In this document: positions 2,633-60,081 of the stretch, in pieces
Numbering within the stretch: position 1 is the stretch's first letter
Layout: each line of letters starts with the position of its first letter
Assembly (NCBI GenBank): GCA_964553045.1
Contig: CAZKJG010000003.1
Span: 81,829 to 145,828, forward strand
Direction of reading: 5' to 3'
Length of the DNA: 64,000 nucleotides
Origin: an uncultured bacterium
GTDB lineage: Bacteria > Fermentibacterota > Fermentibacteria > Fermentibacterales > JCC-6
Translations under genes and position numbers: made by a program
The notes under the pieces: generated by a model
Databases searched by the model: none
What the model saw: the letters and a program-made list of their open reading frames with translations, nothing else
Told to the model about the DNA's origin: nothing

Positions 2633-3716
2633 CTGGGGCTTCCCGGTGCCCGGCTGCCCTGTCGGAGGCGTAGCGGCCCAGCACGTGAAGGAAGATCGCC
2701 GCGCCGACGCCGGCGGGGAGGTACAGAAAGAAGAGCCGCTGAAGCGCCGTGAACACGCCCATCCTGGCCATGGGGACCATTCGGGCCATCAGGGCCCCCG
2801 TGGTGAGCTCGGCAATGCCGCTTCCGCCGGGGCTGGGGGAGAAGTAGAGGATGAAGACTATCAGAGCCTGTATGGCAAGCACCTCCAGCACGCTGCCTTC
2901 GATGCCCAGCCCCTTCATCACCAGCCAGGCGAGCAGGAACTTGTTGAAGTAGAGGACGGCCGTCAGCCCGAAGCTCTGCAGGAATATCAGCGGCTTGCGG
3001 CGCAGGAAGAGCTGGCAGGCCTCCTGGAACTCGCTCAGCTCTTCCAGCAGCCTGCTCGAGACCCTTCGAATGAAACCGGAGGCGAAGCGGAGCCGGCGGG
3101 CCAGCCAGAGCGAGAAGCGCCGCAGCAGGTTTTCCACCTTCTCCGGCTTCCACAGGAAGAACAGGAACACGACCAGCTGAAGGGTGAACAGCCCGAATGC
3201 AACGGCCACCAGGGTGAGCACCGTGCCGCTGCCGATTCCGCTGAGCACCCGCAGGCCGAAGACGGCGGCTATGATGAAGAAGATCACAGTTGCCAGGTAG
3301 TTGACCACGATGATGGAAAGGCCCTCGCCGATGGAAAGGCCGTTTCGGTAGTAGACGAATACCTGGGCCGGGCTTCCTCCGGTATGCGAAGGGGTCATCG
3401 CACCCATGAAGACGTTGGACAGGTTGGCGCGAAAGCTGGTCCAGTAGCTCATCTCAGGGCGGATCTCCCGAATGAATACGTGGTTTCGAAGGCCGCCGAG
3501 CAGCATGTCCAAGAGCGAGAATCCAAGGGTGAGTGCCAGGAACTCCGGACGGAGCCTGCCCAGGTGTCTTACCTGATCGGTTGATGCGGAGCGGAGAAAC
3601 AGCAGCGTGAAGCCGATGGCGGACAGCACCAGAAACAGCACCAGACCCCTGATTATGCGCGAGCTGTCCAGTATTCCCGAGAAGCGCTGGCCGGAGCTTT
3701 CGGGGCCTCTGGACAC
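2622..3716 (-). CDS. Lysylphosphatidylglycerol synthase TM-domain (UPF0104, flippase-like) membrane protein
   Basis: Multiple TM segments; motifs TPSHTGGSP and SPSPGGSGIAE typical of this family. Confidence 0.75.
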   Translation of the reverse strand: MSRGPESSGQRFSGILDSSRIIRGLVLFLVLSAIGFTLLFLRSASTDQVRHLGRLRPEFLALTLGFSLLDMLLGGLRNHVFIREIRPEMSYWTSFRANLSNVFMGAMTPSHTGGSPAQVFVYYRNGLSIGEGLSIIVVNYLATVIFFIIAAVFGLRVLSGIGSGTVLTLVAVAFGLFTLQLVVFLFFLWKPEKVENLLRRFSLWLARRLRFASGFIRRVSSRLLEELSEFQEACQLFLRRKPLIFLQSFGLTAVLYFNKFLLAWLVMKGLGIEGSVLEVLAIQALIVFILYFSPSPGGSGIAELTTGALMARMVPMARMGVFTALQRLFFLYLPAGVGAAIFLHVLGRYASDRAAGHREAPDDG

Positions 3717-6609: not shown

Positions 6610-6624
6610 GCGACGGTCCCCAGA

Positions 6625-7128
6625 TCAGATCTCGGGCCAGAACCTGTTCTCGAACCAGATATCCTCCTGCAGGCTCCGGTCCATGTCCGCCAGCATCTCG
6701 AGGTGGCCGTGCTCCCAGCGGGCCAGCCAGTCGTAGAGCTCCCTCTCCACGTCGGATTCCGCCTGATCGCGCTTCTGGCCGTAATAGGTCTCGGCCTCCT
6801 TCTCCAGCGCCATGGCCGCGGATATGGCGGCTGCCTCGTAACCGGCGGCTTCGATCTCCTGCCTCACCCGGTCGGCCAGGAGGGTCTCGGAGCTGTGCTT
6901 CGTTATGTCGCCCATCTCGCTGATGGCCGCCAGCCTGCCTTCCCGGACAAGCGCGGAGTAATGCTTCTCCAGAACCTCCTCGTGTCGCTTCTCCTCGTCG
7001 GCCATAGTGGCGAAAACCTCGGAGACGGCATCGCTGCCCGACCCCTCGGCTACCTTGCGGTAGAATGCCTGTCCGCGCTTCTCCAGCAGTATGGCTCCCT
7101 TTATCGCGTCGATTGCCCTGTTGCTCAT
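6625..7128 (-). CDS. Ferritin-like/rubrerythrin-family di-iron protein
   Basis: Probable start MSNRAIDAIK (7128; alternative ATG 7140). Paired E..E-x-x-H motifs (LEKRG..DEEKRHEE; LEKEAE..WEHGHLE). Confidence 0.8.
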   Translation of the reverse strand: MSNRAIDAIKGAILLEKRGQAFYRKVAEGSGSDAVSEVFATMADEEKRHEEVLEKHYSALVREGRLAAISEMGDITKHSSETLLADRVRQEIEAAGYEAAAISAAMALEKEAETYYGQKRDQAESDVERELYDWLARWEHGHLEMLADMDRSLQEDIWFENRFWPEI

Positions 7129-7157
7129 CCCATCTCCCATCTGCGTTGACCGAGGCC

Positions 7158-9635
7158 CTATCTCAGCAGAGTGAACCTCTCGGCCCACCGGTCGGTTCCC
7201 CGGCTGACCCGAACCGCGTACACGCCGCTGGGCCGGCCGGACATGTCTACGGACAGGTTGGCTCCGTCCATCTCCCAGGTGCTCCCGGCCACCAGCCTGC
7301 CGGACACGTCGTAGACCCTCACGTCGGCGGCTGTGCCGGGCGAAGCCTCCGCACCGAGCACCAGACTGCCGCGAACCGGGTTGGAGACCAGCCGGGGGCT
7401 GAGCGGGGCCGCTCCCGCCTCCCACCCCTCGATGCCGGTCCCTTCCCATTGCTCGAACCAGATATCCCAGTCTCCGGAGCCTCCAGTGCCCGACCAGGCG
7501 ATGCCGGCCTGCGACGGAGCCGGAAGCCACGCCGGGCCGGACGGAGTCACAGGCTGCTGCGGGACCGACCATGAGGATCCGTCGAAGGTGGAAATCCAGA
7601 TGGTGGCGTCGGAGCCGAATCCCCGTTGCCACAGCACCGCTGGAGCGCCTCCGGGGCCGGCCCCCGCCGAGGGGGCCATCAGGCCGTCGTCCGCCGACTG
7701 GGCGAGTACCTGCTCGTCCCCCCAGGAAGACCCGTCGTACATCCGGGTCACGATGGATGACTGATCCCCGCTTTGCTGCCAGGCCGCCACCAGCCCGTCC
7801 CCCAACGCGCTGATGGTGGGGGCGCGACAGAACTGGCCGGAGGAGATCTGGACGGGCGAGGAGAAGCCGGTCTCGTCACCGCGGCTGCACAGTATGCTTC
7901 CCCCATCCGGTGACTGGGAGGCCCAGACCACGAAGACCTCCCCGTCCAGGACGGCGACGTCCGGGGTGATATCCTGGCTTCCCTGGGCGCTCAGATAGGT
8001 CTCGGGGAATCCACCGTCCAGCCTCTTGATCATCACGTCGCCCTCGCCACGCCGCCAGATCTGCCAGGTCAGCCACATTCCATCCGCCCAGGCCAGAGCC
8101 GGGTCAACGTCGTAGCCGGAGGCCGAGGCGGCAACGGAGACGTCGCCGAATCCATCCCCGGTGGCCACCTTGATGTTGTAGCCGTAGCTGGCGTAGTCGA
8201 AATCGCCCCAGGCAATCCAGGGATCGCCGCTGCCGTCGAACGCCACGTCGGGTGTCACGTCCCAGTACTCGTCGGCGTCAACCGTATAGACCTGGCTCCA
8301 GCTGTCGCCGTCGTAGCAGCGCGACTGCAGGTCGAGCCTGCCGTTGGCACCGGTCAGCCAGGCCACGCAGGTCAGGTCGCCTTCGGTGGCTGCGGCCGGG
8401 TAGCAGTCGGATTCCCCGCTTGTGGAGACGACGTCGTAGTCGGCCCCGGCTCCCCCTGCTCCGGGCATTCGGGAGGAAGAAAGCCCCCTGCCGCTCAACG
8501 GCCGCAGTGTGGGATCGCCCAGAAGCACGCAGCCGTAATGCCAGTTCTCGTCGTAGATTCCCACGTTGGTAAACCACTCGCGGAAGGCCTCTCCGGGGGT
8601 GGCGCCCTCTCCGATGGGGCTGTAGAACTGCTCGAACTCCAGCATGGAACCGGTCTTGGTTGCCCCTATGGCCAGCAGACCGGAATCGGTGCCGAAGAGG
8701 TACCAGTTGCCCAGGCAGGAAGGCTCGGTCCACCTGCAGTTGGAGCAGGCGAACAGCTGCACAAAGGCGGTCTGGGGATTGATCTGCGATATCTCCGGGG
8801 CCATGACGGTCCCCGAGTAGCCGCCGGGTATCTTGAAGGTATGGCCCCAGGGCGAGGAGTGGGACATCAGATGGACGAACTCGTAGCCGTAACCGAGCCT
8901 GTCCCTGTAGTAGTCGTCAGTTGTCTGCGACTCGTCCTGGTAGAGATCCAGGTTGGAGTATATGGCGTCCAGGCCGCAATCTCCGGAGTAGCTCCAGTCG
9001 TCGTCGTTGAACACCAGGGCCCTGTCCGGAAGGGCCATGGAGCCCGTTCTGTACAGATGGTTGGCGGTGAGGTAGTCCCGAAGCTGGTCGACCTCTGACC
9101 CCATCTCCATGGCGTGGGCGTCTATCCTGCCCACCCAGATCTCCGGGGCCCGGTCGCCGGAATGGCCGTCGTACTTGCCGTCGCCGTCCGCGTCGGTCCA
9201 CGTTCCGTCGGTGTCCATCAGGAACAGGTCCAGCGGGTACTCCTCGTGGGCCGAGCCCCAGTCGCTCTCGTACCAGGCCTCCGGCAGATGTCCTATCAGG
9301 ATGGCTCCGGCCAGTTCGGGATGGTCTCCCAGCCAGTCCCTGAGATCCTCCGCCGTGCCCCCGGTCATTACCTCCGTGATGACATTGTAGCCTTCGGATT
9401 CGAGATCCGAGGCCAGCTGGGCCAGCTCCGGGGCCAGCGGGGTCTCCATGCCGGAGGCCACCACCAGCGCCACGTCCGAGTCGCCCCTGTCGCACAGACT
9501 GGCGGACAGGGTATAAAATCCCGGACTTCGGGACTCCAGCGGCGAGCGCTCGACCTGCGCCCTGGGCATCGGTGCCGGGCCGGTGGGTACTGTGGCGGGC
9601 GCCATGAGCAGGGCGGACAGCAGCAGCGGGATCAT
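7158..9635 (-). CDS. C25 (gingipain-like) cysteine peptidase domain protein with signal peptide and T9SS-like C-terminal domain
   Basis: Signal peptide; PEIWVGRI, HLMSHS (His) and LFACSN (Cys), LLGDP motifs; C-terminal VYDVSGRLV...GVYAVRV...RFTLLR. Confidence 0.75.
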   Translation of the reverse strand: MIPLLLSALLMAPATVPTGPAPMPRAQVERSPLESRSPGFYTLSASLCDRGDSDVALVVASGMETPLAPELAQLASDLESEGYNVITEVMTGGTAEDLRDWLGDHPELAGAILIGHLPEAWYESDWGSAHEEYPLDLFLMDTDGTWTDADGDGKYDGHSGDRAPEIWVGRIDAHAMEMGSEVDQLRDYLTANHLYRTGSMALPDRALVFNDDDWSYSGDCGLDAIYSNLDLYQDESQTTDDYYRDRLGYGYEFVHLMSHSSPWGHTFKIPGGYSGTVMAPEISQINPQTAFVQLFACSNCRWTEPSCLGNWYLFGTDSGLLAIGATKTGSMLEFEQFYSPIGEGATPGEAFREWFTNVGIYDENWHYGCVLLGDPTLRPLSGRGLSSSRMPGAGGAGADYDVVSTSGESDCYPAAATEGDLTCVAWLTGANGRLDLQSRCYDGDSWSQVYTVDADEYWDVTPDVAFDGSGDPWIAWGDFDYASYGYNIKVATGDGFGDVSVAASASGYDVDPALAWADGMWLTWQIWRRGEGDVMIKRLDGGFPETYLSAQGSQDITPDVAVLDGEVFVVWASQSPDGGSILCSRGDETGFSSPVQISSGQFCRAPTISALGDGLVAAWQQSGDQSSIVTRMYDGSSWGDEQVLAQSADDGLMAPSAGAGPGGAPAVLWQRGFGSDATIWISTFDGSSWSVPQQPVTPSGPAWLPAPSQAGIAWSGTGGSGDWDIWFEQWEGTGIEGWEAGAAPLSPRLVSNPVRGSLVLGAEASPGTAADVRVYDVSGRLVAGSTWEMDGANLSVDMSGRPSGVYAVRVSRGTDRWAERFTLLR

Positions 9636-9655
9636 TGCGTTTCCTTTCCTCTCCT

Positions 9656-11200
9656 TCAGGGCCGGTGAAGGACTACTATGGAAATGTCAATTCTGCCGTC
9701 GGTGAGGACCGTATCCGCACCGGGCACGTTCGAACCCTCATACACTATACACCCAACGCCCAGCCGGTCTAGCAGCGATCGTGACTCGGCCGAGGGCCAG
9801 CCGTTCAGAACGGCCGCCGTTTCCCGGTAGCCACGGGGAAGGGATGTACTGTAACCGTTGACCATGGGCGTGAAGTGCAGCCTCGAGCCGTACAGCCGCG
9901 AGCACTCCATCTCCGGCCTGACCAGATCGGGCACCATGGGCAGGAACACCACGGACGCCGGGCGGTTCTCCGCCAGCCAGCGGTGGTGGATGTCCGGGGG
10001 AGGATTGTACATGGGAATGGGCGGATGCAGAATCTCCGCCAGGCACAGCAATCCGCCCAGGAAGGCCAGCCGGGGCCTCTTCGAGAGGGCCGTCGCCGAC
10101 AGCAGGAGAAGCGGCAGCAGGGCGAAGATTCCCGCCCTGGCCGGAAGCCGGATGAAGGTCATGCCCGGTATCAGCGCGGCCAGACGGAAGGGGCCGGGAG
10201 CCAGCTGACTGCCTGCCGCCACCAGCGTGGGTCCCAGCGAGAAGGCGCCGAAGATCAGGGCCAGGGCCGCCAGAAGCCACGGAGCCCGTATCCTCCGCCT
10301 GAGTCGCGGCGCCATGAGAGCCGCGGATGCGGCCACCACGACCACCGACCCCGGCCACAGGGCCACCGCTCCCTCCACAACGTCCGGCCTGGCCGCTCCC
10401 AGCAGGTAGCCGCTCTCCCATGGCGAGAGGTAGGAGAGGAGGTCGGCGGACGCTATGTGGTCCACGGGCCAGGATGCGGCGTTCTGCAGATGGCGACGCA
10501 GCAGGGGCAGCATTGCGACCCCGCCCAGAGCCGACAGCCCGGCCAGTGCCGCCGCCCGGCGCGTTTGGCGGCGGAACAGGGCCCATGCGGACACTATTAC
10601 CAGAGCCATCCCCGTAAACAGCCAGTGGTAGAGGCCGGCGCAGCCCTGCAGGACGAGCAGCACCGGCACCCACCAGCCGGACGCCCGGCGGTCCAGGAAC
10701 GACAGGGCCCTTTCCATGGCCAGGATCCCCAGCCCGGGCGAGACCAGCTGAAGGTGCCAGAGGTGGCTCTGGAAGTAGGGCAGGCATACGCAGGCGCATC
10801 CTGCGAACAGCCCGCCCCAGAAATCCGCCCCCACCCTGCGGGCCAGGCGCATCACGGCGAAACCGGTGAATGCGATGGACAGGACGAACAGCACGTTGTG
10901 AGCCCGGAGCGGCGACAGGCCCAGCCCGAGCAGGGGGGTTACGGTAACCGCCTGGGTCAGGAGCAGGTCTCCCCGGCCGTGGGCGTCTGGCTGGCCGAGG
11001 AAGACAGGGGGTGTGAGCGGATTCTGCAGGCCGGTCAGCGCATGGTGGTTCCAGGCCAGCAGCCAGGAGTTGTAGAGGGTGTCCGCATGGTCCCGGGCTC
11101 CGCCGCTTACGGCCATGGGCCAGGTTGCCGCGGAGGCCAGCAACAGCAGCACGACGGCGGCTGCCGCGTGACGCCGGACGACGCCCGCTTCGCCCGCCAT
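9656..11200 (-). CDS. Polytopic membrane protein, probable GT-C-fold (YfhO-like) glycosyltransferase
   Basis: About 10 TM helices; N-terminal loop DTLYNSWLLAWNHHAL; soluble C-terminal region with PMVNGYS. Start position uncertain. Confidence 0.55.
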   Translation of the reverse strand: MAGEAGVVRRHAAAAVVLLLLASAATWPMAVSGGARDHADTLYNSWLLAWNHHALTGLQNPLTPPVFLGQPDAHGRGDLLLTQAVTVTPLLGLGLSPLRAHNVLFVLSIAFTGFAVMRLARRVGADFWGGLFAGCACVCLPYFQSHLWHLQLVSPGLGILAMERALSFLDRRASGWWVPVLLVLQGCAGLYHWLFTGMALVIVSAWALFRRQTRRAAALAGLSALGGVAMLPLLRRHLQNAASWPVDHIASADLLSYLSPWESGYLLGAARPDVVEGAVALWPGSVVVVAASAALMAPRLRRRIRAPWLLAALALIFGAFSLGPTLVAAGSQLAPGPFRLAALIPGMTFIRLPARAGIFALLPLLLLSATALSKRPRLAFLGGLLCLAEILHPPIPMYNPPPDIHHRWLAENRPASVVFLPMVPDLVRPEMECSRLYGSRLHFTPMVNGYSTSLPRGYRETAAVLNGWPSAESRSLLDRLGVGCIVYEGSNVPGADTVLTDGRIDISIVVLHRP

Positions 11201-11207
11201 CGTCAGG

Positions 11208-12650
11208 TCAGTAGGCCCTGGCCACTATGGCCTGCCGGTGGGTCTCGCGGCCGGTTATGAAGCACCTGCCGCTTTCCTCTGGCTGCTCCAGCGGGATGCA
11301 GCGCACGGTGGCCTTTGTCTCCTCCTTCATCCGCTGCTCCTCGGCCTCCCCACCGTCCCACCACACGCGGTAGAATCCGGGCCTCTCCGGCAGTTGCTCC
11401 ACGAGCTGGTCGTAGGTCTCTATATCGTAGGTCCTGGATCTCCGGTACTCCGTCGCGTCGGCCAGCATCGCGCCCTGGATGGCCTCCAGCCTCTCGACGA
11501 CCCGGCCGGCCAGGCCCTCCATGGGAATGGTGAACTTGCCCTCGCGGCCGGGACGGTTGCGGGGGCTGGCCATGACATGGCCCTCCTCCAGGTCCCGCGG
11601 CCCCAGCTCCAGCCTGAGGGGCACACCCCGGACCTCCCAGTGGTTGAACTTGAATCCCGGGCTCGAACCCTCGGTATCGTCCAGCTTCACCCTGACGCCG
11701 GCGTCGGAGAGCCTGTTCCGTATCTCCGAGGCCTTCTCGAGCACCCTGGTCCGGTCGTCGTCGCTGCGGAATATGGGGACGATTACCGTCTGCAAGGGCG
11801 CCAGGTTCGGGGGCAGCCTGAGGCCGTGCTCGTCGCCGTGGGCCATGATCAGGGCGCCCACCATACGGGTGGATACGCCCCAGCTGGTCTGATGGACGTA
11901 CTTCTGTTCATTGTCGCTGTCGAGGAACTTGGTATCGAAGGCCCTGGCGAAGTTGGTGCCCAGGTAGTGGCTCGTTCCGCTCTGCAGCGCCCAGCCATTG
12001 CGCATCATCGCCTCTATGGCGTAGGTGTCCACCGCACCGGCGAACTTCTCGCTTTCGGTCTTCAGGCCGGTCACGACCGGTATTGCCCCATCCTCCCGGG
12101 CGAAGTCCTCGTACACCTGCAGCATCCGCATGGTCTCCTCACGTGCCTCCTCCTCGGTGGCATGGGCCGTGTGGCCCTCCTGCCAGAGGAACTCGGTGGT
12201 TCGGAGGAAGGGCCTGGTCCTCATCTCCCACCGGACCACGTTGGCCCACTGGTTCAGCAACATGGGCAGGTCGCGGTAGCTGTTGATCCACTTGGAGAAC
12301 ATGTGGTTGATTATGGTCTCCGATGTGGGCCTCACCGCCAGCGGCTCCTCCAGCTCCTTGCCGCCACCGTGGGTAACCATGGCCAGCTCCGGCGCGAAGC
12401 CCTCCACGTGCTCGGACTCCCGGTTGATGAAGCTCTCGGGGATGAAGAGCGGGAAGTAGGCGTTGCTGTGGCCGGTATCCTTGAACCTGCGGTCCAGGGA
12501 GGCCTTCATGTTCTCCCAGATGGCGTATCCGTAGGGCCGAATGATCATGCAGCCCCTGACCGGGGCGGTATCGGCCAGCTCCGCCTCTCTGATGACGTCC
12601 AGGTACCACCTTGAGAAATCCGTGCCGGGGGATGTTATCTTCTTGGCCAT
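11208..12650 (-). CDS. proS: Proline--tRNA ligase, archaeal/eukaryotic-like type
   Basis: Start MAKKITS at 12650; motifs VRGCMIIRPYG, RPTSET, RWEMRTRPFLRTTEFLWQEGHT, QSGTSHYLG, C-terminal IVARAY. Confidence 0.97.
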   Translation of the reverse strand: MAKKITSPGTDFSRWYLDVIREAELADTAPVRGCMIIRPYGYAIWENMKASLDRRFKDTGHSNAYFPLFIPESFINRESEHVEGFAPELAMVTHGGGKELEEPLAVRPTSETIINHMFSKWINSYRDLPMLLNQWANVVRWEMRTRPFLRTTEFLWQEGHTAHATEEEAREETMRMLQVYEDFAREDGAIPVVTGLKTESEKFAGAVDTYAIEAMMRNGWALQSGTSHYLGTNFARAFDTKFLDSDNEQKYVHQTSWGVSTRMVGALIMAHGDEHGLRLPPNLAPLQTVIVPIFRSDDDRTRVLEKASEIRNRLSDAGVRVKLDDTEGSSPGFKFNHWEVRGVPLRLELGPRDLEEGHVMASPRNRPGREGKFTIPMEGLAGRVVERLEAIQGAMLADATEYRRSRTYDIETYDQLVEQLPERPGFYRVWWDGGEAEEQRMKEETKATVRCIPLEQPEESGRCFITGRETHRQAIVARAY

Positions 12651-52967: not shown

Positions 52968-53180
52968 TCAGCTGGCCCAGCCGGACCCCCCGCAGCCCGA
53001 GCACTTGTTCACCTCTTCGGTGACATCGTTCTTGATCCTGCCGGTACCGCCGCACCTTCCGCACTTGGTGGGGGGCTCCGGAACGTTCAGGTAGCCGTCC
53101 CCGCCGCATATGTCACAGGGCGAGTTGCCGGGCCCGTCCGTGCCCGTGCCTTCGCACCATGCACACTTCACCATTGCCAT
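52968..53180 (-). CDS. Small stand-alone DnaJ-type zinc-finger protein
   Basis: Four CxxCxGxG repeats (CAWCEGTG, CDICGGDG, CGRCGGTG, CSGCGGSG) in 70 aa; RBS GGAG upstream. Confidence 0.8.
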   Translation of the reverse strand: MAMVKCAWCEGTGTDGPGNSPCDICGGDGYLNVPEPPTKCGRCGGTGRIKNDVTEEVNKCSGCGGSGWAS

Positions 53181-53242
53181 CAGGGGCTCCTTTCGGTTCG
53201 AATGCGTCCACGGGTTGAATCAACAGGTTGCAGGCCCCGTCG

Positions 53243-54559
53243 TCAATCGCCGCGGAGTCCGGCCAGTATTCTCGCGTGCGCGGCGAATGCGATCTCGCGG
53301 ACACCGGAGGGGCGGACCCACATAACCTCCGACGCGTCATCGCCGGCCCGTGGCTCGCCGGTCACGTTCCCGGCCTCCAGGACCGACAGGACCACGCCGC
53401 CGTAGGCGGTGGTGTCGACCTCCGACCCCACCAGCTTCAGGTTGCCGGCGCGAAGCGATGTCTCCTCCATCAGCTCCCTCCTGCCGCACTCGAAAACCGT
53501 CTCCCCCAGCTCCAGGAAGCCTCCCGGAAGCGAGAGCATCCCCCTGGCCGGGGGCACCGCCCTTCGTACCAGCAGCACCTTTTCGCCCCTCCGGACAATG
53601 ATCGTAACCGCCGGAAGGGGGTTGCGGTACGCAACCATGCCGCAGTCGGGACAGATCGGCGGAGGGCCCTCGTCGAAGACGAGCAATGCGCCGCAGCGGG
53701 CGCAGAATCGGGGCTCGAGGTAGAAGGCCTCTCCGTCGCGCTTTCGGGGCATCGGCCCGGCCGGGGGAAGGTGCCCGGGAACCGGCCCGCCCCCCAGCAT
53801 GACGCCGCCACGAATCGTCTGGCGCAGGTAGGTGAGGGATGAGGAGACGGCCTGTTCGCTCCCCCAGCCCAGGGCCAGGCCGGCGGCCAGGGCCGAGCCC
53901 AGCGTGCATCCGGTTCCGTGCACCTTGCCCGGGTAGATGCGCCTTCCCGGGAACCAGCGGCCGCCCTCCTCGGCGGCCAGGTAGTCGGCCGGTTCACCCT
54001 CCAGATGTCCGCCCTTGACCAGAGCGGCGCCGGCACCCATCCGCAGCAGAAGCTCCCCGGCGCGCTCCATGCCTTTCCTGTCACGCACCTCCAGCCCGGT
54101 CAGGGCCTCGGCCTCGTCCAGGTTGGGGGTTATCAGGTCGGACCTGGGCAGCAGGCGGTCCCTCATCACCGCCATCAGGTCGGCGCCGTGCAGGCTGTCG
54201 CCGCTTCCCGCCACCAGAACCGGGTCCAGAACGTAAAGGGCGTCGGTCAGGCGATTCTCGAGGCTGTGGGCCAGCCTTTGGGCCATCGCCCCGCTTCCCA
54301 GCATTCCGCTCTTGACGGAGGCCGGCGAGCAGTCGTCGCAAACGGCGTCCAGCTGGGCGGCGAAGAGATCCTCCTCCACGGCGCGCCAATCCCTCACGCC
54401 CCGGGTGTTCTGTACGGTGACGGCGGTAACGGCAAGGCAGCCGTGACATCCCAGGGCTGCAACGGCCTTCAGATCGGCCGCCAGGCCCGCTCCGCCGCTG
54501 GGGTCGGTCCCGCCGGCCAGCAGAACCACCGGCCTGCTTCCCCCCAGCTTCTCCCGCAT
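53243..54559 (-). CDS. thiD: Fusion of HMP/HMP-P kinase (ThiD-like) and Zn-ribbon Nudix hydrolase
   Basis: GTDPSGGAGLAAD, VQNT, KSGML, TPNLDEA, KGGHL, HGTGCT; then CARC..CPDC and Nudix box GGFLELGETVFECGRRELMEETSL; ATG 54559. Confidence 0.88.
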   Translation of the reverse strand: MREKLGGSRPVVLLAGGTDPSGGAGLAADLKAVAALGCHGCLAVTAVTVQNTRGVRDWRAVEEDLFAAQLDAVCDDCSPASVKSGMLGSGAMAQRLAHSLENRLTDALYVLDPVLVAGSGDSLHGADLMAVMRDRLLPRSDLITPNLDEAEALTGLEVRDRKGMERAGELLLRMGAGAALVKGGHLEGEPADYLAAEEGGRWFPGRRIYPGKVHGTGCTLGSALAAGLALGWGSEQAVSSSLTYLRQTIRGGVMLGGGPVPGHLPPAGPMPRKRDGEAFYLEPRFCARCGALLVFDEGPPPICPDCGMVAYRNPLPAVTIIVRRGEKVLLVRRAVPPARGMLSLPGGFLELGETVFECGRRELMEETSLRAGNLKLVGSEVDTTAYGGVVLSVLEAGNVTGEPRAGDDASEVMWVRPSGVREIAFAAHARILAGLRGD

Positions 54560-54652
54560 GCTTCCTCCCCTCAAGCCTGACCCACCGCCCAGCATTAATC
54601 CATATGCGGCCGCGGGCAAGCCCCACCGCCCATCTACCTGGATACTCGGTGT

Positions 54653-56473
54653 ATGCTTATCTTCCTGCACATGATTGAGAGACTCAGGTGGCTCGCGGTT
54701 TCGGCCCTGCTGCTCGCGGCCGCGGGTCCGGCAACCGCTGCGGACTACGAAGAGCCCACCGTGGACTCCATATCGGTAACCGGGCACCTTCCCTTCGGCA
54801 GGGGCCGTCTCCTAGCGGGCACCGACCTCGAGGAGGGCACCTCCCTCTTCACGATAACCCGCGGTGAGGTCCGCGCGACTGTGATGTCCAACCTTGTGTC
54901 CCGGGGCTACCTGGAAGCCGAGGTCACAGTCACCTGGCCCTCCTGGCGCGACACCCTCTCGGTGGTCGCCGTGGACGTGAGGCCTGGGCTCCAGAGCCTC
55001 TTCGCAGGCCTGGTCCTGGGGGGCATCGACGTCTTTTCCCCCAAGAGGATCTCCCGCCTGTTCCCGCTGGAGGCCGCAGAGGTGATCACGCCCGAGATCC
55101 TGGCCGGCTTCGAGCAGTCGGTCAAGAACCTGTACCAGGAACATGGCTACGCGAGGGCCAGTGTCAGCGCCTACGTCTCCAGCGGCGATACGTCGGCGGT
55201 GGATTCCGGTCAGGTCCTGCGCACGGTGGAATGCCATGTGGAAGAGGGCCGGCGCCTGTACATGGGCAACGTGGACGTCAAAGGGCTTCAGACGGTACGC
55301 GAGCAGGTGGTGACCAGGGAGATACCGCTGGCCCTCGGCGATTCGTTGAACATGGTCCTGCTGAGGGAATCGGTGGGGGACATCTACTCCGTGGGCCTCT
55401 TCAGGGATGTCCGCTTCGAGTACCCGGGTCTCTCCGAGCAGTCCGACACCGTGGACATCAGGGTCATGGTGACGGAGAAGGACTACAGGAGAATCGACCT
55501 GGGTACCGGTTACCTCTCCCCCTACGCAGTGCTTGGAAGCGTCTACTGGGAGCATCCCAACATCTGGGGCAACAACCAGCGCCTGCGGATCGGGGCAACC
55601 TACAAGAGGTACGTGGGCACCGACGGCGGCGACGTGTTCGAGCCGGAGATGACATATACCGAGCCCTGGTTTCTCTCCACCAGATGGGAATGGAACCTGG
55701 GTCTGAGCTTCACATATTTCCAGCTGCCCTCCCTGGAGGAGAGGAGTCTTTCGGCCAGTACGGGACTGAAGCGCGACCTCACCCGGGATCTGGCGCTCAC
55801 CCTGGGGTACTCGCTCGAGAGGGACCGCATAAGGGCGGGCCTGGAAAGCGGCGGATACGAGGAGACCGACTGGACGACCAGCTCGCGGGTGTGGACCCGG
55901 CTGGCGCACGACACCAGGGACCCGCTGCTGGACCCGGTCCGGGGACACTACATCTCCGGACGGGCCGAGCTCTCGGGCGGACCGCTGGGCGGGCGGGACT
56001 TCTACAAGCTGGAGGGCGAGGCCCGGTTCATGAGAAGCCTGACCAGCAGCCTCGTGCTGGCCTGGCGGCTGAAGGGCGGAACCGTGTTTCCGTTCGGTGA
56101 GACCAGCATCGTCCCTCCGAAAGACCGATTCTACCTGGGCGGGAGCTCCACTGTCCGGGGCTACGGATTCCGGGACATCGGCCCGGAGGACGAGGACGGC
56201 AATCCGCTGGGAGGCAGGGTAGTGGCCCTGGGAAACGCCGAGACCCGCGTATCGGTCTGGGGCCCGGTGAGCACCGCCGTGTTCATCGACGTGGGCGGCC
56301 TGTGGCAGAGCACGGGTGAGATAGCGGCCGGCAGCACCGGTTTCGGGACCGGAATCGGCATCCGTGTCTCCACTCCGTTCGGCCCCATAAGGCTCGACTA
56401 CGGCTTCGCCCCCACCTGGCGAGAGAGTGTGCGCCGAGGCCGGGTCTACATAGCTCTGGGCCAGGCCTTCTGA
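54653..56473 (+). CDS. Omp85/BamA-TamA-family outer membrane protein
   Basis: POTRA-like repeats; beta-barrel with FYLGGSSTVRGY loop and C-terminal TPFGPIRLDYG...YIALGQAF. Confidence 0.88.
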   Translation: MLIFLHMIERLRWLAVSALLLAAAGPATAADYEEPTVDSISVTGHLPFGRGRLLAGTDLEEGTSLFTITRGEVRATVMSNLVSRGYLEAEVTVTWPSWRDTLSVVAVDVRPGLQSLFAGLVLGGIDVFSPKRISRLFPLEAAEVITPEILAGFEQSVKNLYQEHGYARASVSAYVSSGDTSAVDSGQVLRTVECHVEEGRRLYMGNVDVKGLQTVREQVVTREIPLALGDSLNMVLLRESVGDIYSVGLFRDVRFEYPGLSEQSDTVDIRVMVTEKDYRRIDLGTGYLSPYAVLGSVYWEHPNIWGNNQRLRIGATYKRYVGTDGGDVFEPEMTYTEPWFLSTRWEWNLGLSFTYFQLPSLEERSLSASTGLKRDLTRDLALTLGYSLERDRIRAGLESGGYEETDWTTSSRVWTRLAHDTRDPLLDPVRGHYISGRAELSGGPLGGRDFYKLEGEARFMRSLTSSLVLAWRLKGGTVFPFGETSIVPPKDRFYLGGSSTVRGYGFRDIGPEDEDGNPLGGRVVALGNAETRVSVWGPVSTAVFIDVGGLWQSTGEIAAGSTGFGTGIGIRVSTPFGPIRLDYGFAPTWRESVRRGRVYIALGQAF

Positions 56474-59400
56474 TGGCCGCCCGCACCGTGAGACGCAGGT
56501 TCCTTCCCCTGCTGGCGCTGGCCGGCCTGGCGGCGCTGCTTCTCAACCTGTACGTGTTCCTGGCCGCCGGATGGCTGGACAGCGCGGCTACGGCCATCGT
56601 GCACCGCCTCGCCTCCTCGGATACCCTCTCGGTTGGCGTCTACGGTCTGCGCAGCGACCTGTTCTGGAGCACGTCCGTGGATTCGGTGGTGGTGCGGGAC
56701 GACCTCGGCCTTGTGGTGCGGGTGGCCCCGGCCAGGGTGAGGGGAAGCGTTCCCGCATACCTGCTGGGCACGGGCCTGGACTCCATCGGGGCTGGCCGAC
56801 TGGAGGTGGCGGTGCCGGCTCCCTCTCCCGGGCGGGAGCCGGACTCGCTGGCCTGCATACTCGAGGACGTGCGGAGCGGTTTCGTCACCGCCACCGAACG
56901 ACTCACCCTGGACTACGGAGTGGTACACGACCGGGGAATCCCCATTGTGGACAGCATGTACATATCGACGTCCGTATCCATGGATGGAGGGGTAGGCCTG
57001 AAGGTGGAGAGCGTGGGCGCGCTGGTTCCGGGGATGGGGGCTCTGACCGGAAGCGGCAGCCTGGGCATGCGCGAGTGCCTGGCGTTTGCCGACAGCTTCA
57101 CCGTACATGCCGCGCCGGGCAGCCTTGCACTTTCCGGAGAGCTCAGGGGCGGGGATGAGGAGCTGGATCTGTCGTTCGCCGGCGCGGCCGGACCCGGCGT
57201 ACCGTGGCTCTCCTTCCCCCTCCAGGTCGCCTTCGAAGGCTCCGTTGTCGGCCCCCTCTCCTCACCGGAGCTGGTTCTCTCCGTGCCCGAGGCCCAGACC
57301 GCCCCGGACGGGGAGCGAATATCCTTCAGCATAGACACCCTGTACGTCTCGTCCGAATCAACCCGGGTGGAGGGGTTGCGCACCTCCAGATACGGCGTTT
57401 CCCTGTACGCCTCCGGCTCCATAAGGCTGGCCGACCTCTCCTGGAGCGTGCGGGGTGAGGCGGCTCTGGACAGGGCCGACCTTTCCCGGCTGGCGGATGT
57501 GCTGCCTTCGACTTCGCTGTCGGGCGCGGTATCGGTGGAGGCTTCCGGAAGCGGGACCGAACCGTCCGCGGCCAGCTTCTCCGCCATGCTATCGGGCGGA
57601 AGCGCCGGGCCCGTCACCGTGCACAGCGGAACGCTCAGCGGCGAGATTGGCCGAGGCTCGGCCACCGTCCGGGGGGTGCTGCATACTCCCCGCGGATCCG
57701 TGAGCCTCAGCGGTGGCGCCGTGCTTGCCGGGGGGATGGAGCCCGTATCCTACCGGGGTAACGTCTCCGGAGCCCTCTCCGGCAGCAGCATACTGGATGA
57801 CCTCGCCGCCGAGCTGCCGGTTCCCAGGGTGAGCGGCGTTTCCTTCGATATCGGGGTGGATGGAGACAGGCGGCGGATGCTGGCAGAGGGCTCTTTCTCC
57901 GTGGCCTCGGCCGGGATCGACAGCATGGTGGTCGAAGATGTGAGATTCGGCGGCAGGACGGGCATAGAGTTTTCGGGGCCGGTCAGCGCCGCCGGCAGCC
58001 TGCAGGTGGGGTCCCTGGAGCTTTCGGGTATGGGCGCGGCGGGCATAACCTACACCGGAAGCTTCATCTCGGGACGGGGCGAGTACCCGGAGGCGGACGG
58101 GGCTCTTCGGGTAGACAGCCTTCGATCGGCCGGAATCCGCGCCTCGCTTTCGGCGGGAGTGGGGCTGGCCGGCGGCACACTGAGCATGAACGACCTGGAG
58201 ATACTTACCTACGGAGGCTACCGCACATCGGCCGACCTGTCCGTCGACCTCGGCGACACCCTGGGGTTCTACGGGGAGAGCCTCGCCGTGGTTCGCAGCA
58301 AGCTCCGACTCATCTCCGGGGGAGGACTGGCCGGTTCCTGGTGGAAGGAAGGTCTGGCCCTGGACTCACTCTGGCTGTCCACCCCACACGGACGGATCGG
58401 AGGGCGGGCCCTCTTAGGGGGCAGCGGCGACAGCCTCGATGCCGATTTCAGCTTCGAGAGGATGGACCTGGCATCCATATCCGGCCTGCTCTTCCCATCG
58501 GGAGGATTCTCGGGCGTGGGCAGCCTGGAGCTCTCGGCCTCGGGCACACTCGGCAGTCCCCGCGGATACATCCGCGGCCGGGTGGTGGGACCGGCGTGGG
58601 GCCCCTACCTGGCGGACAGCCTTACCGTGGACGTCGTCCTCGGAGACTCCGCGCTCACGGTGGAAGGGATCTACTCCTGGTCCGACGGGATAAGGTCGGG
58701 GATACGGGGGGCCATCAGGCCTTTCTGGACAGACGGAGCTTCCTCGCCGGGTCTCTCGGACATTTTCTGGGCCGAGGTGGAGCTGACGGAGATAGGCGAC
58801 TGGCTGTTCTACGCCCTTCCCATACCGGTGCGCACCAGGGGGGCCACCGTGTCCGCCAACGCGGAATACACCCGCAACGAGGCGGGGGAGCCCGACTTCG
58901 ACATGCAGGTGGTTGCCACCGCCCGGGAGATGATAATCACGGCCATCAACCAGCACCTGCCCAACGTCTCGCTGAACATCCTCTACAGCTACCCCACCAC
59001 CCAGCAGTACTCCACCCGCATGTCGCTGACCTCGGGAGCCGAGGGGATGGGGAAGGTCACCGCCCAGACCATGTTCAAGGTGCTCCGTCACTTCCCCACG
59101 CCGGAGATCGGGAGCTACTACTTCAGAACGACCCTGGACGACTACCGGGTGGTCCTGGGACGCTATGCCAGCATGTCGCTTGACGGCGAGATCAGCGCTT
59201 CGGGGGAGGGGATGGAGGAGCGGCCGCTCCTGGAGGGTGACGTGAGCATAGCCGGGGGTTATCTGGGCATGCCTCCCCCTGACAAGGGCGACGGATCCTC
59301 CGCCGGGACCCCGACGGAGCTTCCCTTCGACGTGCTGGTGCGGATCACCAGCAGCCGGGGACTGTGGTTCCGCAGCTCAATGGCCGACCTGGAGCTCACG

Positions 59401-60081
59401 GCGGACCTGATGGTGCTGACCCAGGAGCGGGTACCGACGGTGAACGGAGAGCTCAGCGTATCCCGGGGTAACGTGTACATACTGCAGAAGGACTTCCGTA
59501 TCACAGAGGGTCGGGTGGCCATAAGGCCGGGACTGCCCCCCGTCCTGGAGCTGGACATCATCGCCGAGACTTCCATTCGCGGCATCATGGACCAGTCCAT
59601 GTACACCATAACCGTCAGGATCACCGGTCCGCCCGATTCTCCCGACATTGTCCTCTCGGGATCCGGACCGGAGGGGGAGCTGTCCCAGGAGGACATACTC
59701 TCGCTTCTGGCGACCGGCCTGACCTACGGCCAGCTGCAGCAGGTTGACACGGGCGCCCTGGGCACCGGCCTCGAGGACATAGCGCAGGGCTACATCGGCA
59801 AGCTGCTGGCCCGAAGCCTGCGTGACGACATGGGCCTGGACGCCTTCAGCCTGAGCCCGGAGCTGCTCTCGGACACCACCAGCTTCCGGTTCAACGTGGG
59901 CAAGTACATACTGCCGGAGCTGTTCGTCTCCTACGAGGGTGACGTGCTCTCCTCCGAGCCCGGGACGGTTAGCGCCCAGTACTTCATAAGCGAGGACGTC
60001 TACCTGCAGGGAAGCACGAAATCCACGGTTCACGGCGACCAGGAGCCCTCACTGGAGCTGCACTACACCTTCAGCTACTGA
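56473..60081 (+). CDS. Translocation/assembly module TamB-like protein
   Basis: N-terminal TM anchor, long beta-rich region, C-terminal DUF490-like segment (G...SPDIVLS...LSQEDILSLL...NVGKY); coupled to the Omp85 gene. Confidence 0.8.
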   Translation: MAARTVRRRFLPLLALAGLAALLLNLYVFLAAGWLDSAATAIVHRLASSDTLSVGVYGLRSDLFWSTSVDSVVVRDDLGLVVRVAPARVRGSVPAYLLGTGLDSIGAGRLEVAVPAPSPGREPDSLACILEDVRSGFVTATERLTLDYGVVHDRGIPIVDSMYISTSVSMDGGVGLKVESVGALVPGMGALTGSGSLGMRECLAFADSFTVHAAPGSLALSGELRGGDEELDLSFAGAAGPGVPWLSFPLQVAFEGSVVGPLSSPELVLSVPEAQTAPDGERISFSIDTLYVSSESTRVEGLRTSRYGVSLYASGSIRLADLSWSVRGEAALDRADLSRLADVLPSTSLSGAVSVEASGSGTEPSAASFSAMLSGGSAGPVTVHSGTLSGEIGRGSATVRGVLHTPRGSVSLSGGAVLAGGMEPVSYRGNVSGALSGSSILDDLAAELPVPRVSGVSFDIGVDGDRRRMLAEGSFSVASAGIDSMVVEDVRFGGRTGIEFSGPVSAAGSLQVGSLELSGMGAAGITYTGSFISGRGEYPEADGALRVDSLRSAGIRASLSAGVGLAGGTLSMNDLEILTYGGYRTSADLSVDLGDTLGFYGESLAVVRSKLRLISGGGLAGSWWKEGLALDSLWLSTPHGRIGGRALLGGSGDSLDADFSFERMDLASISGLLFPSGGFSGVGSLELSASGTLGSPRGYIRGRVVGPAWGPYLADSLTVDVVLGDSALTVEGIYSWSDGIRSGIRGAIRPFWTDGASSPGLSDIFWAEVELTEIGDWLFYALPIPVRTRGATVSANAEYTRNEAGEPDFDMQVVATAREMIITAINQHLPNVSLNILYSYPTTQQYSTRMSLTSGAEGMGKVTAQTMFKVLRHFPTPEIGSYYFRTTLDDYRVVLGRYASMSLDGEISASGEGMEERPLLEGDVSIAGGYLGMPPPDKGDGSSAGTPTELPFDVLVRITSSRGLWFRSSMADLELTADLMVLTQERVPTVNGELSVSRGNVYILQKDFRITEGRVAIRPGLPPVLELDIIAETSIRGIMDQSMYTITVRITGPPDSPDIVLSGSGPEGELSQEDILSLLATGLTYGQLQQVDTGALGTGLEDIAQGYIGKLLARSLRDDMGLDAFSLSPELLSDTTSFRFNVGKYILPELFVSYEGDVLSSEPGTVSAQYFISEDVYLQGSTKSTVHGDQEPSLELHYTFSY

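Follow-up and report, generated by a model that had tools for sequence, protein, structure and literature searches.

A phylum-wide fusion of the thiamine-pathway kinase ThiD with a zinc-ribbon Nudix domain, and its possible role in clearing analogue diphosphates

Nudix enzymes and ThiD fusions in thiamine metabolism

The Tnr3 protein of S. pombe consists of a Nudix domain fused to thiamine diphosphokinase. In Tnr3 and in the homologues of this protein (YJR142W, NUDT20/24), the Nudix enzyme removes erroneous products of the thiamine pathway; according to PMC5158307, oxy- and oxo-ThDP are hydrolysed by Nudix enzymes of yeast and plants. In bacteria, the E. coli Nudix enzyme NudJ (YmfB) acts on the product of ThiD. 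PMC5158307 and PMC12359138 describe it as hydrolysing HMP-PP, MeO-HMP-PP, CF3-HMP-PP and MeO-TPP and as conferring bacimethrin resistance, and the latter source adds the hydrolysis of TPP in vitro. A further Nudix-type activity belongs to the Thi4 route. In the papers concerned, the hydrolase for ADP-thiazole (ADT) is a NUDIX protein that 'remains to be characterized' (PMC9544542), an enzyme 'yet to be identified' (PMC4215014), or a 'presumed' NUDIX (PMC12029414).

Fusions of ThiD to other domains have also been described. ThiD-ThiN (ThiDN), ThiE-ThiD, ThiD-ThiE and yeast THI20 (ThiD-TenA), the last of which is a Foldseek match of the ThiD half discussed here, all resemble the present protein in having a ThiD core with an additional domain at the C-terminus. 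In the known fusions, the partner is a neighbouring enzyme of the pathway whose function is known, whereas here it is a hydrolase without an assigned pathway step. Among 50 long representatives of the ThiD family that were scanned, 17 contained ThiE, 13 ThiN, 5 a Nudix domain, 1 a DJ-1/PfpI domain, and 14 nothing that was recognised. ThiD is also found fused to DJ-1/PfpI and, in another case, to glyoxalase/VOC, domains that we take to be of the repair type. Our search of the literature for the ThiD-Nudix fusion found no description of it.

Architecture of the ThiD-Nudix protein

The thiD-nudix gene occupies positions 53243..54559 (minus strand) of the window, the 64-kb stretch of DNA that was analysed, and comprises 438 codons and a stop. 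The open reading frame that contains it is longer (53243..54787, minus strand), but with the ATG at 54559 as start, the protein has 438 aa and agrees with its closest relatives in both length and N-terminus (P0002: 438 aa, 100% coverage). From the N- to the C-terminus, the protein consists of a ThiD HMP/HMP-P kinase, a 24-residue linker, a zinc ribbon with four cysteines, and a Nudix domain whose catalytic box is intact. PF08543, PF00293 and PF00294 are the only Pfam matches in the whole protein. Pfam, NCBIfam and the translation agree on an intact ThiD-like kinase followed in frame by a zinc-ribbon Nudix domain, so that the anatomy given in the first-pass annotation was right. The current annotation, judged by the names of the database matches, covers the kinase half only. 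An AF2 model of the full-length protein has a pTM of 0.73, with the linker at low confidence. Upstream, a 93-bp intergenic region (54560..54652) separates the gene from a divergent BamA/TamA-like gene. This neighbour is retained at 10 of the 11 orthologous loci, and the neighbourhood as a whole is of a conserved tamA/tamB type.

The ThiD domain (residues 19-261; 53777..54505, minus strand) is matched by PF08543 (Phos_pyr_kin) with an E-value of 1.5e-72 over profile positions 1-244 of 246, and scores 229.2 bits against TIGR00097 (HMP-P kinase), above the curated equivalog cut-off of 204.95. Its fold is ribokinase-like, with Foldseek matches to 8g1h, 1ub0 and 1jxh (target TM 0.89-0.92, 36-42% identity). 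Residue conservation was counted across 73 aligned fused homologues, in which the ThiD motifs GTDPSGGAG, DPV, KGGH and HGTGC are invariant or nearly so. The protein is the sole true ThiD of the genome. From this status, beside ThiC, ThiM, ThiE and ThiL, we infer kinase activity on HMP and HMP-P, and not on pyridoxal. The linker that follows (residues 262-285; 53705..53776, minus strand) contains the G-x-x-P-G-H motif from the C-terminus of ThiD, together with a conserved A-F-Y. Among the 73 homologues, residues P265 and Y280 never vary, and G262, H263 and F279 are nearly invariant. The pLDDT of the linker is low (54-65), and its dN/dS is 0.03-0.18 (5/6 pairs giving a value).

The zinc ribbon (C286-x2-C289 ... 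C303-x2-C306; 53642..53704, minus strand) has all four cysteines in 73/73 fused homologues and in 12/12 genomes, and aligns with the zinc motif of the 3cng and NudC chains. Behind it, the Nudix fold spans residues 316-430 (53270..53614, minus strand; PF00293, E-value 5e-17). Its AF2 model has a pLDDT of 91.4 and at least 500 PDB matches in Foldseek at E-values up to 0.001, and all matches listed are Nudix proteins. The Nudix box (residues 347-369; 53453..53521, minus strand) reads G347-x5-E353-x7-R361-E362-L-x-E365-E366-x-S368-L369 and agrees with the consensus G-x5-E-x7-R-E-U-x-E-E-x-G-U except for the last glycine. Positions G347, F348, E353, R361, E362, E365 and E366 are invariant in the 73 fused homologues. 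The replacement of the terminal glycine by serine, already pointed out in the first-pass annotation, is present, but it carries no weight because position 368 varies in the family, being mostly Gly and otherwise A, K, T, N or S. The intact catalytic residues predict a catalytically competent Nudix half. The motif D382-x-T384-x-Y386-G387 (D-x-T-x-Y-G-G; 53399..53416, minus strand), located 13-18 residues past the Nudix box, is invariant in 73/73 fused homologues and 12/12 genomes, and is absent from the six listed stand-alone zinc-ribbon Nudix relatives (P0123, P0125, P0126, P0128, P0133, P0140). Its restriction to the fused proteins suggests specialisation after the fusion.

By sequence and fold, the Nudix half is nearest to enzymes acting on ADP-X compounds (NudC, ADP-ribose pyrophosphatases). 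Foldseek places 3cng, NudC, 2yyh, NadM-Nudix and NrtR in this order, and the T. thermophilus ADP-ribose pyrophosphatase is also among the best sequence and fold matches. NudC and 3cng, a Nitrosomonas europaea protein of uncharacterised function, share with the present protein a four-cysteine zinc motif immediately N-terminal to the Nudix fold. NudC is also the best curated family (NF001299), with a score of 60.7 bits that lies below the cut-off of 158 and covers model positions 98-199 of 263 only. Unlike NudC, the fused protein does not have the NudC N-terminal domain, and it has the D-x-T-x-Y-G-G motif in place of the NudC signature after the box. We take that C-terminal signature to be SQPWPFPxS; it does not occur in the translation, where the residues past the box read RAGNLKLVGSEVDTTAYGG... 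No match named NudJ was found among 45 PDB sequence matches (E-values up to 0.01), among the fold matches listed, or among 25 NCBIfam families (E-values up to 1), a collection that may or may not include a NudJ model. NudJ differs from the present protein in being a stand-alone enzyme that is not known to have a zinc ribbon. The differences from Tnr3 are that the partner is ThiD and not TPK, that the Nudix subfamily is another one, and that the Tnr3 type is eukaryotic; Pfam found no Tnr3-type N-terminal domain in the protein. An ESM Atlas search with the Nudix part returned generic NUDIX clusters only, and neither 3cng nor 2yyh is mentioned in a paper on eight Nudix hydrolases.

Conservation of the fusion and its thiamine context

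The phylum was represented by 70 genomes (source names Candidatus Fermentibacteria, Aegiribacteria and Sabulitectum). Separate genes in close relatives, which the first-pass annotation had named as an outcome that would speak against its reading, are not what these genomes contain: the fusion is present at full length, with the same in-frame junction, in 60 of them. Partial matches were found in 7 more, four of which start at most 40 bases from a contig start, and one of which is broken by stops. All of the best 120 database matches carry PF08543 together with PF00293. A contig that spans the entire gene shows no differences, and one contig from a second sample spans the linker to the zinc ribbon without indels. 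The ThiD-Nudix fusion is therefore no artefact. Purifying selection acts on both halves to a similar degree, with dN/dS values in six pairs of 0.09-0.26 for ThiD and 0.08-0.39 for Nudix, and of 0.105 in a pair without Thi4.

A second, rare ThiD-Nudix type without the zinc ribbon exists in three 90%-identity clusters (P0175, P0325 and P0326), and its Nudix half has stand-alone relatives of its own. Among the 80 loci returned for P0175 in species-representative genomes, none covers the Nudix half, and the three longest matches are one ThiD-glyoxalase fusion and two plain ThiDs. In metagenome contigs, the Nudix part of P0175 as a query retrieved three stand-alone Nudix genes only, in non-thiamine contexts. 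In a quick maximum likelihood tree of ThiD, the second type branches within a set of 18 unfused ThiDs (SH-aLRT 99), and a single origin of both fused types was not rejected in an AU test on the ThiD tree (p 0.437).

The thi genes of the genome are thiC, thiM-thiE, thiL and thiD-nudix, of which all but the last are on other contigs. Rfam identified no TPP riboswitch or other family in the window, and no match at 11 orthologous thiD-nudix loci. The first-pass annotation had likewise seen no other thi gene or TPP riboswitch here. TPP riboswitches are located at thiC, thi4 and thiM-thiE (in this genome, the one at thiM-thiE is just under the gathering score), and precede thi4 in 4/4 loci checked. 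Thiazole synthases were not found in the genome: a search for Thi4 gave Rossmann-fold partial matches only, and one for ThiG a partial 34-bit match within a 423-aa ORF and one weaker match. Synteny with the sister species G041, which has thi4, reveals a clean indel of about 3.4 kb, so that the thi4 segment is truly absent. Loss of a hydrolase together with thi4 was ruled out, because the segment in G041 contains Thi4 and a DUF234 ATPase only.

It had been overlooked at first that the thiazole synthase of the phylum, in those members that have one, is Thi4, and that a Nudix-type hydrolase is required for the Thi4 product. Thi4 occurs in 26/70 genomes and ThiG in 1/70. Thi4 is missing in 44/70, including all 10 genomes of two families (f2 and f3) and a single-contig assembly (G005). 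In seven genomes (G012, G015, G017, G024, G026, G028, G038), the coordinates place thi4 and thiM no more than about 1.5 kb apart. The fusion is present in 60 (+7 partial) of the 70 genomes, this one without Thi4 among them, and its distribution does not follow that of Thi4. The 24 signature residues of the Nudix half are identical in 12/12 genomes, 8 of which are without Thi4, one of these in a single contig. The equal conservation with and without Thi4 fits a role tied to ThiD, and not to the thiazole branch. The genome has only three Nudix genes; one of the others encodes a separate 141-aa protein of the 2yyh / NadM-Nudix type, and a stand-alone paralogous Nudix is found in each genome.

Possible roles of the Nudix half

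Nudix domains fuse with many partners, and the fusion alone is therefore weak evidence. Purifying selection, the motif of the fused clade, the existence of a second fusion type and the NudJ precedent make a functional tie between ThiD and Nudix more likely. We tentatively favour, by analogy, a NudJ/Tnr3-like diphosphatase for HMP-PP-type analogue diphosphates, an assignment that we regard as possible and not yet as probable. The retention of the fusion across the phylum, its place as the only ThiD, and the fusions of ThiD to domains that we take to be of the repair type agree with this choice. The single polypeptide encoded by thiD-nudix would be bifunctional. With ATP, the N-terminal ThiD would convert HMP to HMP-P, and HMP-P (from ThiC) to HMP-PP for ThiE. 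The C-terminal half would be a metal-dependent Nudix diphosphatase resting on a structural four-cysteine zinc ribbon, and would cut the diphosphate of those analogue diphosphates, of the pyrimidine (or thiamine) kind, that arise from errors of ThiD, perhaps also trimming excess HMP-PP. ThiE and ThiL would thereby be kept from building toxic thiamine analogues. In its chemistry and protective purpose this role would parallel that of NudJ, and the logic proposed is that of NudJ and the Tnr3 Nudix domain. Nudix activity as such is predicted, and the choice of substrate above all is conjectural. Several observations speak against the assignment. In sequence, the Nudix half resembles neither NudJ nor the Tnr3 type, and its nearest folds are ADP-X binders. 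An HMP-PP diphosphatase on the kinase that makes HMP-PP would drive a futile cycle unless it discriminated strongly. Moreover, thiD-nudix has no TPP riboswitch while thiC, thi4 and thiM-thiE have one, and the ThiD tree is compatible with one common origin for both kinds of fusion.

The kinship to NudC, the NadM-Nudix ADP-ribose pyrophosphatase, NrtR and the T. thermophilus ADP-ribose pyrophosphatase could instead indicate a general house-cleaning enzyme for ADP-X compounds (ADP-ribose, NADH, or NAD/dpCoA RNA caps, as for NudC), with a fusion that had no thiamine meaning and became fixed in the phylum ancestor. With only three Nudix genes in the genome, each may bear a housekeeping load, and both the riboswitch-free, tamA/tamB-type locus and the conservation independent of Thi4 would fit. 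We nevertheless consider this rather unlikely, since no curated cut-off is reached, the NudC signature is absent, the 141-aa protein could be the ADP-ribose enzyme, the fused clade has gained its own invariant motif, and ThiD-Nudix fusions occur in a second type. Because ADT, too, is an ADP-X compound, the Nudix half might be the missing ADT diphosphatase. It would then split the Thi4 product into AMP and the thiazole phosphate that ThiE uses, at a minimum in the ancestor and in those members that have Thi4. The predominance of Thi4 over ThiG, the thi4 of the sister species, the riboswitches before thi4 and its proximity to thiM would agree with this, as would the lack of a known gene for the hydrolase in the three papers mentioned above. 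The idea appears unlikely, because thi4 is missing here and in most of the phylum while the Nudix signature remains identical in those genomes checked, the partner ThiD belongs to the pyrimidine branch and is neither Thi4 nor ThiE, the gene is not part of the thi operons under riboswitch control, and the stand-alone paralogue is an equally good candidate. It is also doubtful that an ADT hydrolase was recruited by fusion to ThiD in a Thi4-only phylum and then retained after repeated loss of Thi4 by clearing other ADP-X compounds or pyrimidine diphosphates. Tuning of finished cofactor pools, through cleavage of thiamine diphosphate, thiamine triphosphate or adenosine thiamine triphosphate, could draw on the TPP hydrolysis by NudJ and on the invariant aromatic residues F348 and Y386, which might stack on a heterocycle; it is very improbable, as the partner makes HMP-PP and not thiamine phosphates. 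Ligand sensing is the function of NrtR-type Nudix domains, one of which ranks among the fold matches. A non-catalytic sensing or scaffolding domain is nonetheless hardly credible when all catalytic residues of the box are invariant, and the same holds for an assembly or annotation artefact, given the identical junction in 60 independent assemblies, the contig that covers the gene without differences, and the second sample that bridges the linker.

To our knowledge, bacterial thiamine synthesis is treated as fully mapped. A whole phylum has joined a hydrolase to an essential kinase of this pathway and has kept it under selection, which points to an extra step in B1 metabolism, proposed here from the sequences. 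The protein is small and soluble-looking. If the Nudix half cuts ADP-thiazole, it would fill a gap marked as unidentified in papers from 2014 to 2025. If, as we tentatively prefer, it proofreads pyrimidine diphosphates, it would be a bacterial counterpart of the damage pre-emption by Tnr3, one pathway step earlier, and would bear on the question of how precursor-scavenging anaerobes avoid antivitamins.

Architecture of the fused protein

The open reading frame at window positions 53243..54787 on the reverse strand starts with the ATG at 54559 and encodes a protein of 438 aa; the closest relatives, P0002 and P0005, have the same N-terminus and the same length (438 aa each, with 100% coverage). 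It contains a Phos_pyr_kin domain (PF08543, residues 19-261, Pfam E 1.5e-72) and a NUDIX domain (PF00293, residues 316-430, E 5e-17). The linker between the two domains comprises 24 residues and is directly followed by the zinc-ribbon cysteines (C286-x2-C289 ... C303-x2-C306). The Nudix box reads G347-x5-E353-x7-R361-E362-L-x-E365-E366-x-S368-L369. The protein scores 229.2 bits against TIGR00097, the NCBIfam equivalog-domain model for HMP-P kinase (cut-off 204.95), and its ThiD half matches the solved HMP-P kinases 8g1h, 1ub0 and 1jxh with target TM 0.89-0.92. The AlphaFold2 model of the whole protein has a mean pLDDT of 88 and a pTM of 0.73, with low confidence around residues 261-310, and the isolated Nudix part reaches a pLDDT of 91.4. 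Judged from its sequence, the product belongs to both the ThiD family and the Nudix superfamily. Since domains, linker, all four cysteines and the Nudix box were found, the first-pass annotation, which had described a ThiD-like kinase followed in frame by a zinc-ribbon Nudix domain, was right in every detail of the anatomy (ORF, Pfam, NCBIfam, motifs). The serine in place of glycine in the Nudix box carries no meaning, because position 368 is mostly Gly but otherwise A, K, T, N or S in an alignment of 73 homologues, across which the catalytic residues are invariant.

The Nudix half is not claimed by any curated family in NCBIfam. The best match, NudC, reaches 60.7 bits against a cut-off of 158 and covers the zinc motif and Nudix box only; by the membership tests applied, the protein is a member neither of NudC or NudJ nor of the Tnr3-type subfamily. 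The nearest solved proteins by sequence are 3cng, 2yyh, Arabidopsis NUDX1, NudC and a T. thermophilus ADP-ribose pyrophosphatase, and the fold matches are, in order, 3cng, NudC, 2yyh, NadM-Nudix and NrtR, with NUDX1 lower. The Nudix half therefore leans towards enzymes that bind ADP-X compounds, with the qualification that the titles of 3cng and 2yyh assign no function. Stand-alone zinc-ribbon Nudix proteins (170-181 aa) show about 37-44% identity and lack the D382-x-T384-x-Y386-G387 motif that is invariant in 73/73 fused sequences. F348, R312-N313-P314, D407-D408, W414, F425 and H428 are likewise invariant in all 73. Besides the fused gene, there are just two Nudix genes in the genome, and one of them (141 aa) belongs to the 2yyh / NadM-Nudix type.

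Conservation of the fusion and other ThiD fusions

In a search of 5.8 billion clustered proteins, both Pfam domains were present in all of the 120 best matches, which are 426-505 aa long except for one 275-aa fragment. Source names, where given, are Candidatus Fermentibacteria, Aegiribacteria or Sabulitectum, and the database names mention the kinase only. According to a six-frame search of 70 genomes of the phylum, the fusion is uninterrupted in 60 (query start 1-11, end 431-438, identity 43-100%, the upper value being this genome itself) and partial in seven (G029, G054, G040, G022, G042, G030 and G017). The first four partial matches start less than 40 bases from the contig start, and the one in G042 is broken by stops. 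The same search found no match in the ThiD range in G034 (90% complete), G059 (77%) and G023 (67%). A contig assembled from a public run, possibly the source of the window DNA, spans positions 53100-54700 with zero differences. A contig from another sample in that study spans 53591-53783, bridging linker and zinc ribbon, without indels; together with the in-frame fusion in 60 genomes, it speaks for a real junction. In six pairs, dN/dS ranges from 0.09 to 0.26 in the ThiD half and from 0.08 to 0.39 in the half made up of zinc ribbon and Nudix domain.

One fused homologue from public assemblies (P0169, 454 aa) has altered ThiD motifs (GSTDPSGGGG, RADR instead of KGGH, HGMGS instead of HGTGC); its zinc ribbon, Nudix box and D-x-T-x-Y-G-G motif are intact. 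Its kinase half may be decaying while the Nudix half is kept.

A second ThiD-Nudix type, without the zinc ribbon, is represented by P0175, P0325 and P0326, the only two-domain proteins among 120 matches listed. Its ThiD half is 55-63% identical to alphaproteobacterial-type ThiDs and 40% identical to the protein described here, and its Nudix half has stand-alone relatives of its own. A quick maximum-likelihood tree nests this type among 18 unfused ThiDs (SH-aLRT 99). As a tree uniting both fused groups is not rejected by the AU test (p 0.437), the case for two origins of ThiD-Nudix depends chiefly on the difference between the Nudix types. The partners in 50 long ThiD-family representatives are ThiE (17), ThiN (13), Nudix (5, namely four of the present lineage and P0175), DJ-1/PfpI (1) and nothing recognised (14). 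The DJ-1/PfpI fusion is protein P0255 (PF01965, E 4.6e-39), and a ThiD-glyoxalase/VOC fusion is found at 5836..7170 (+) of locus L060 from a Sphingomonadales MAG (PF00903, 26.8 bits, cut-off 20.6). Both partners are presumably of the metabolite-repair type. The listings and selected passages returned by full-text literature searches held no description of a ThiD-Nudix fusion.

Thiamine genes in the genome and the phylum

The fused gene is the sole true ThiD in this genome (G000; 2.80 Mb, 93% complete), where the window corresponds to C3:81829-145828. A TPP riboswitch (57.8 bits) precedes thiC, and thiM and thiE form a pair downstream of a TPP-like element (G000:C9:37663-37762; 2664..2763 of locus L010), which at 52.9 bits is just under the Rfam gathering score of 54.3 and would thus escape default annotation. 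The genome also carries thiL; neither Thi4 nor a real ThiG was found in it. From this inventory, the bacterium appears to make the pyrimidine, to salvage the thiazole and to need the fused ThiD. The fused gene itself has no riboswitch: zero Rfam matches were obtained in the 64-kb window, as the first-pass annotation had stated for TPP riboswitches, and none in 11 orthologous loci. The genes around it are conserved but have no link to thiamine. Beyond a divergent intergenic region of 93 bp, the region 54653..60081 (+) holds a BamA/TamA-like gene (606 aa), kept in 10 of the 11 loci, and a 1202-aa gene taken from its position to be TamB-like. A 70-aa CxxCxGxG-repeat protein is encoded 62 bp downstream on the same strand (52968..53180, -). 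It is kept in five of the 11 loci (69-91% identity) and shows weak similarity to the DnaJ central domain (20.8 bits, under the cut-off).

ThiC is present in 67 and ThiM in 60 of the 70 genomes, and ThiG in only one. Thi4 occurs in 26 (13 of the 46 high-quality genomes), is confined to family f1 and varies within genera. All four thi4 loci checked have a TPP riboswitch directly upstream, and, judging from the coordinates, no more than about 1.5 kb separates thi4 from thiM in seven genomes (G012, G015, G017, G024, G026, G028 and G038). In the sister species G041, thi4 lies on a segment of about 3.4 kb, together with a TPP riboswitch and a DUF234 ATPase gene (8449..11468 of locus L114, G041:C18, compared with G000:C1:3332-4670). 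The segment is absent from G000, since its flanking genes adjoin each other there. The distribution of Thi4 is that of a thiazole-synthesis capacity gained or lost repeatedly. The single ThiG genome, G048 (G048:C4:2462-3187, E 1.1e-105), lacks Thi4 and may have acquired the bacterial thiazole route horizontally.

Possible roles of the Nudix half

The first-pass idea that the Nudix half is a diphosphatase for products of ThiD ranks first among the readings, and we favour it tentatively. It is supported by precedents: passages in the cited papers describe E. coli NudJ as hydrolysing HMP-PP, MeO-HMP-PP, CF3-HMP-PP and MeO-TPP and protecting from bacimethrin (PMC5158307, PMC12359138), and yeast and plant Nudix enzymes as removing oxy- and oxo-ThDP (PMC5158307). 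It is also supported by the second fusion type, in which ThiD is again the partner, of another type of Nudix domain. The protein would then act like Tnr3, as a kinase with a Nudix domain that undoes the kinase's mistakes, and its Nudix chemistry would resemble that of NudJ. It has the kinase and Nudix combination in common with Tnr3 and the proposed chemistry with NudJ, but is outside the Tnr3-type subfamily and not a member of NudJ. The fold neighbours, and the fact that the fused gene is not under thiamine regulation, suggest a general house-cleaning enzyme for ADP-X compounds, a reading that is rather unlikely and ranks second.

The third reading, that the Nudix half is the missing hydrolase for ADP-thiazole (ADT, the Thi4 product), would fit the ADP-X leaning of the fold and the phylum's route to thiazole (Thi4 in 26/70, ThiG in 1/70 genomes); passages in PMC4215014, PMC9544542 and PMC12029414 call this enzyme uncharacterised. 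However, the fusion occurs without Thi4 in G000, in every member of families f2 and f3, as well as in the single-contig assembly G005, and Thi4 is missing from 44 of the 70 genomes. Moreover, 24 signature residues are identical in all 12 genomes examined, four with and eight without Thi4, and dN/dS is about 0.1 in a pair without it. This conservation and dN/dS indicate that the Nudix domain is needed even without Thi4, whatever its action. ADT hydrolysis is thus an attractive, at present disfavoured possibility, and we consider it unlikely. A role in thiamine-phosphate homeostasis comes fourth and seems improbable; a non-catalytic Nudix half and a fusion artefact, taken jointly, come last and are very improbable.

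Irrespective of this ranking, sequence comparisons indicate that the gene encodes a real, phylum-wide and selected bifunctional protein. It adds a new variant to the fusions already known among thiamine enzymes.
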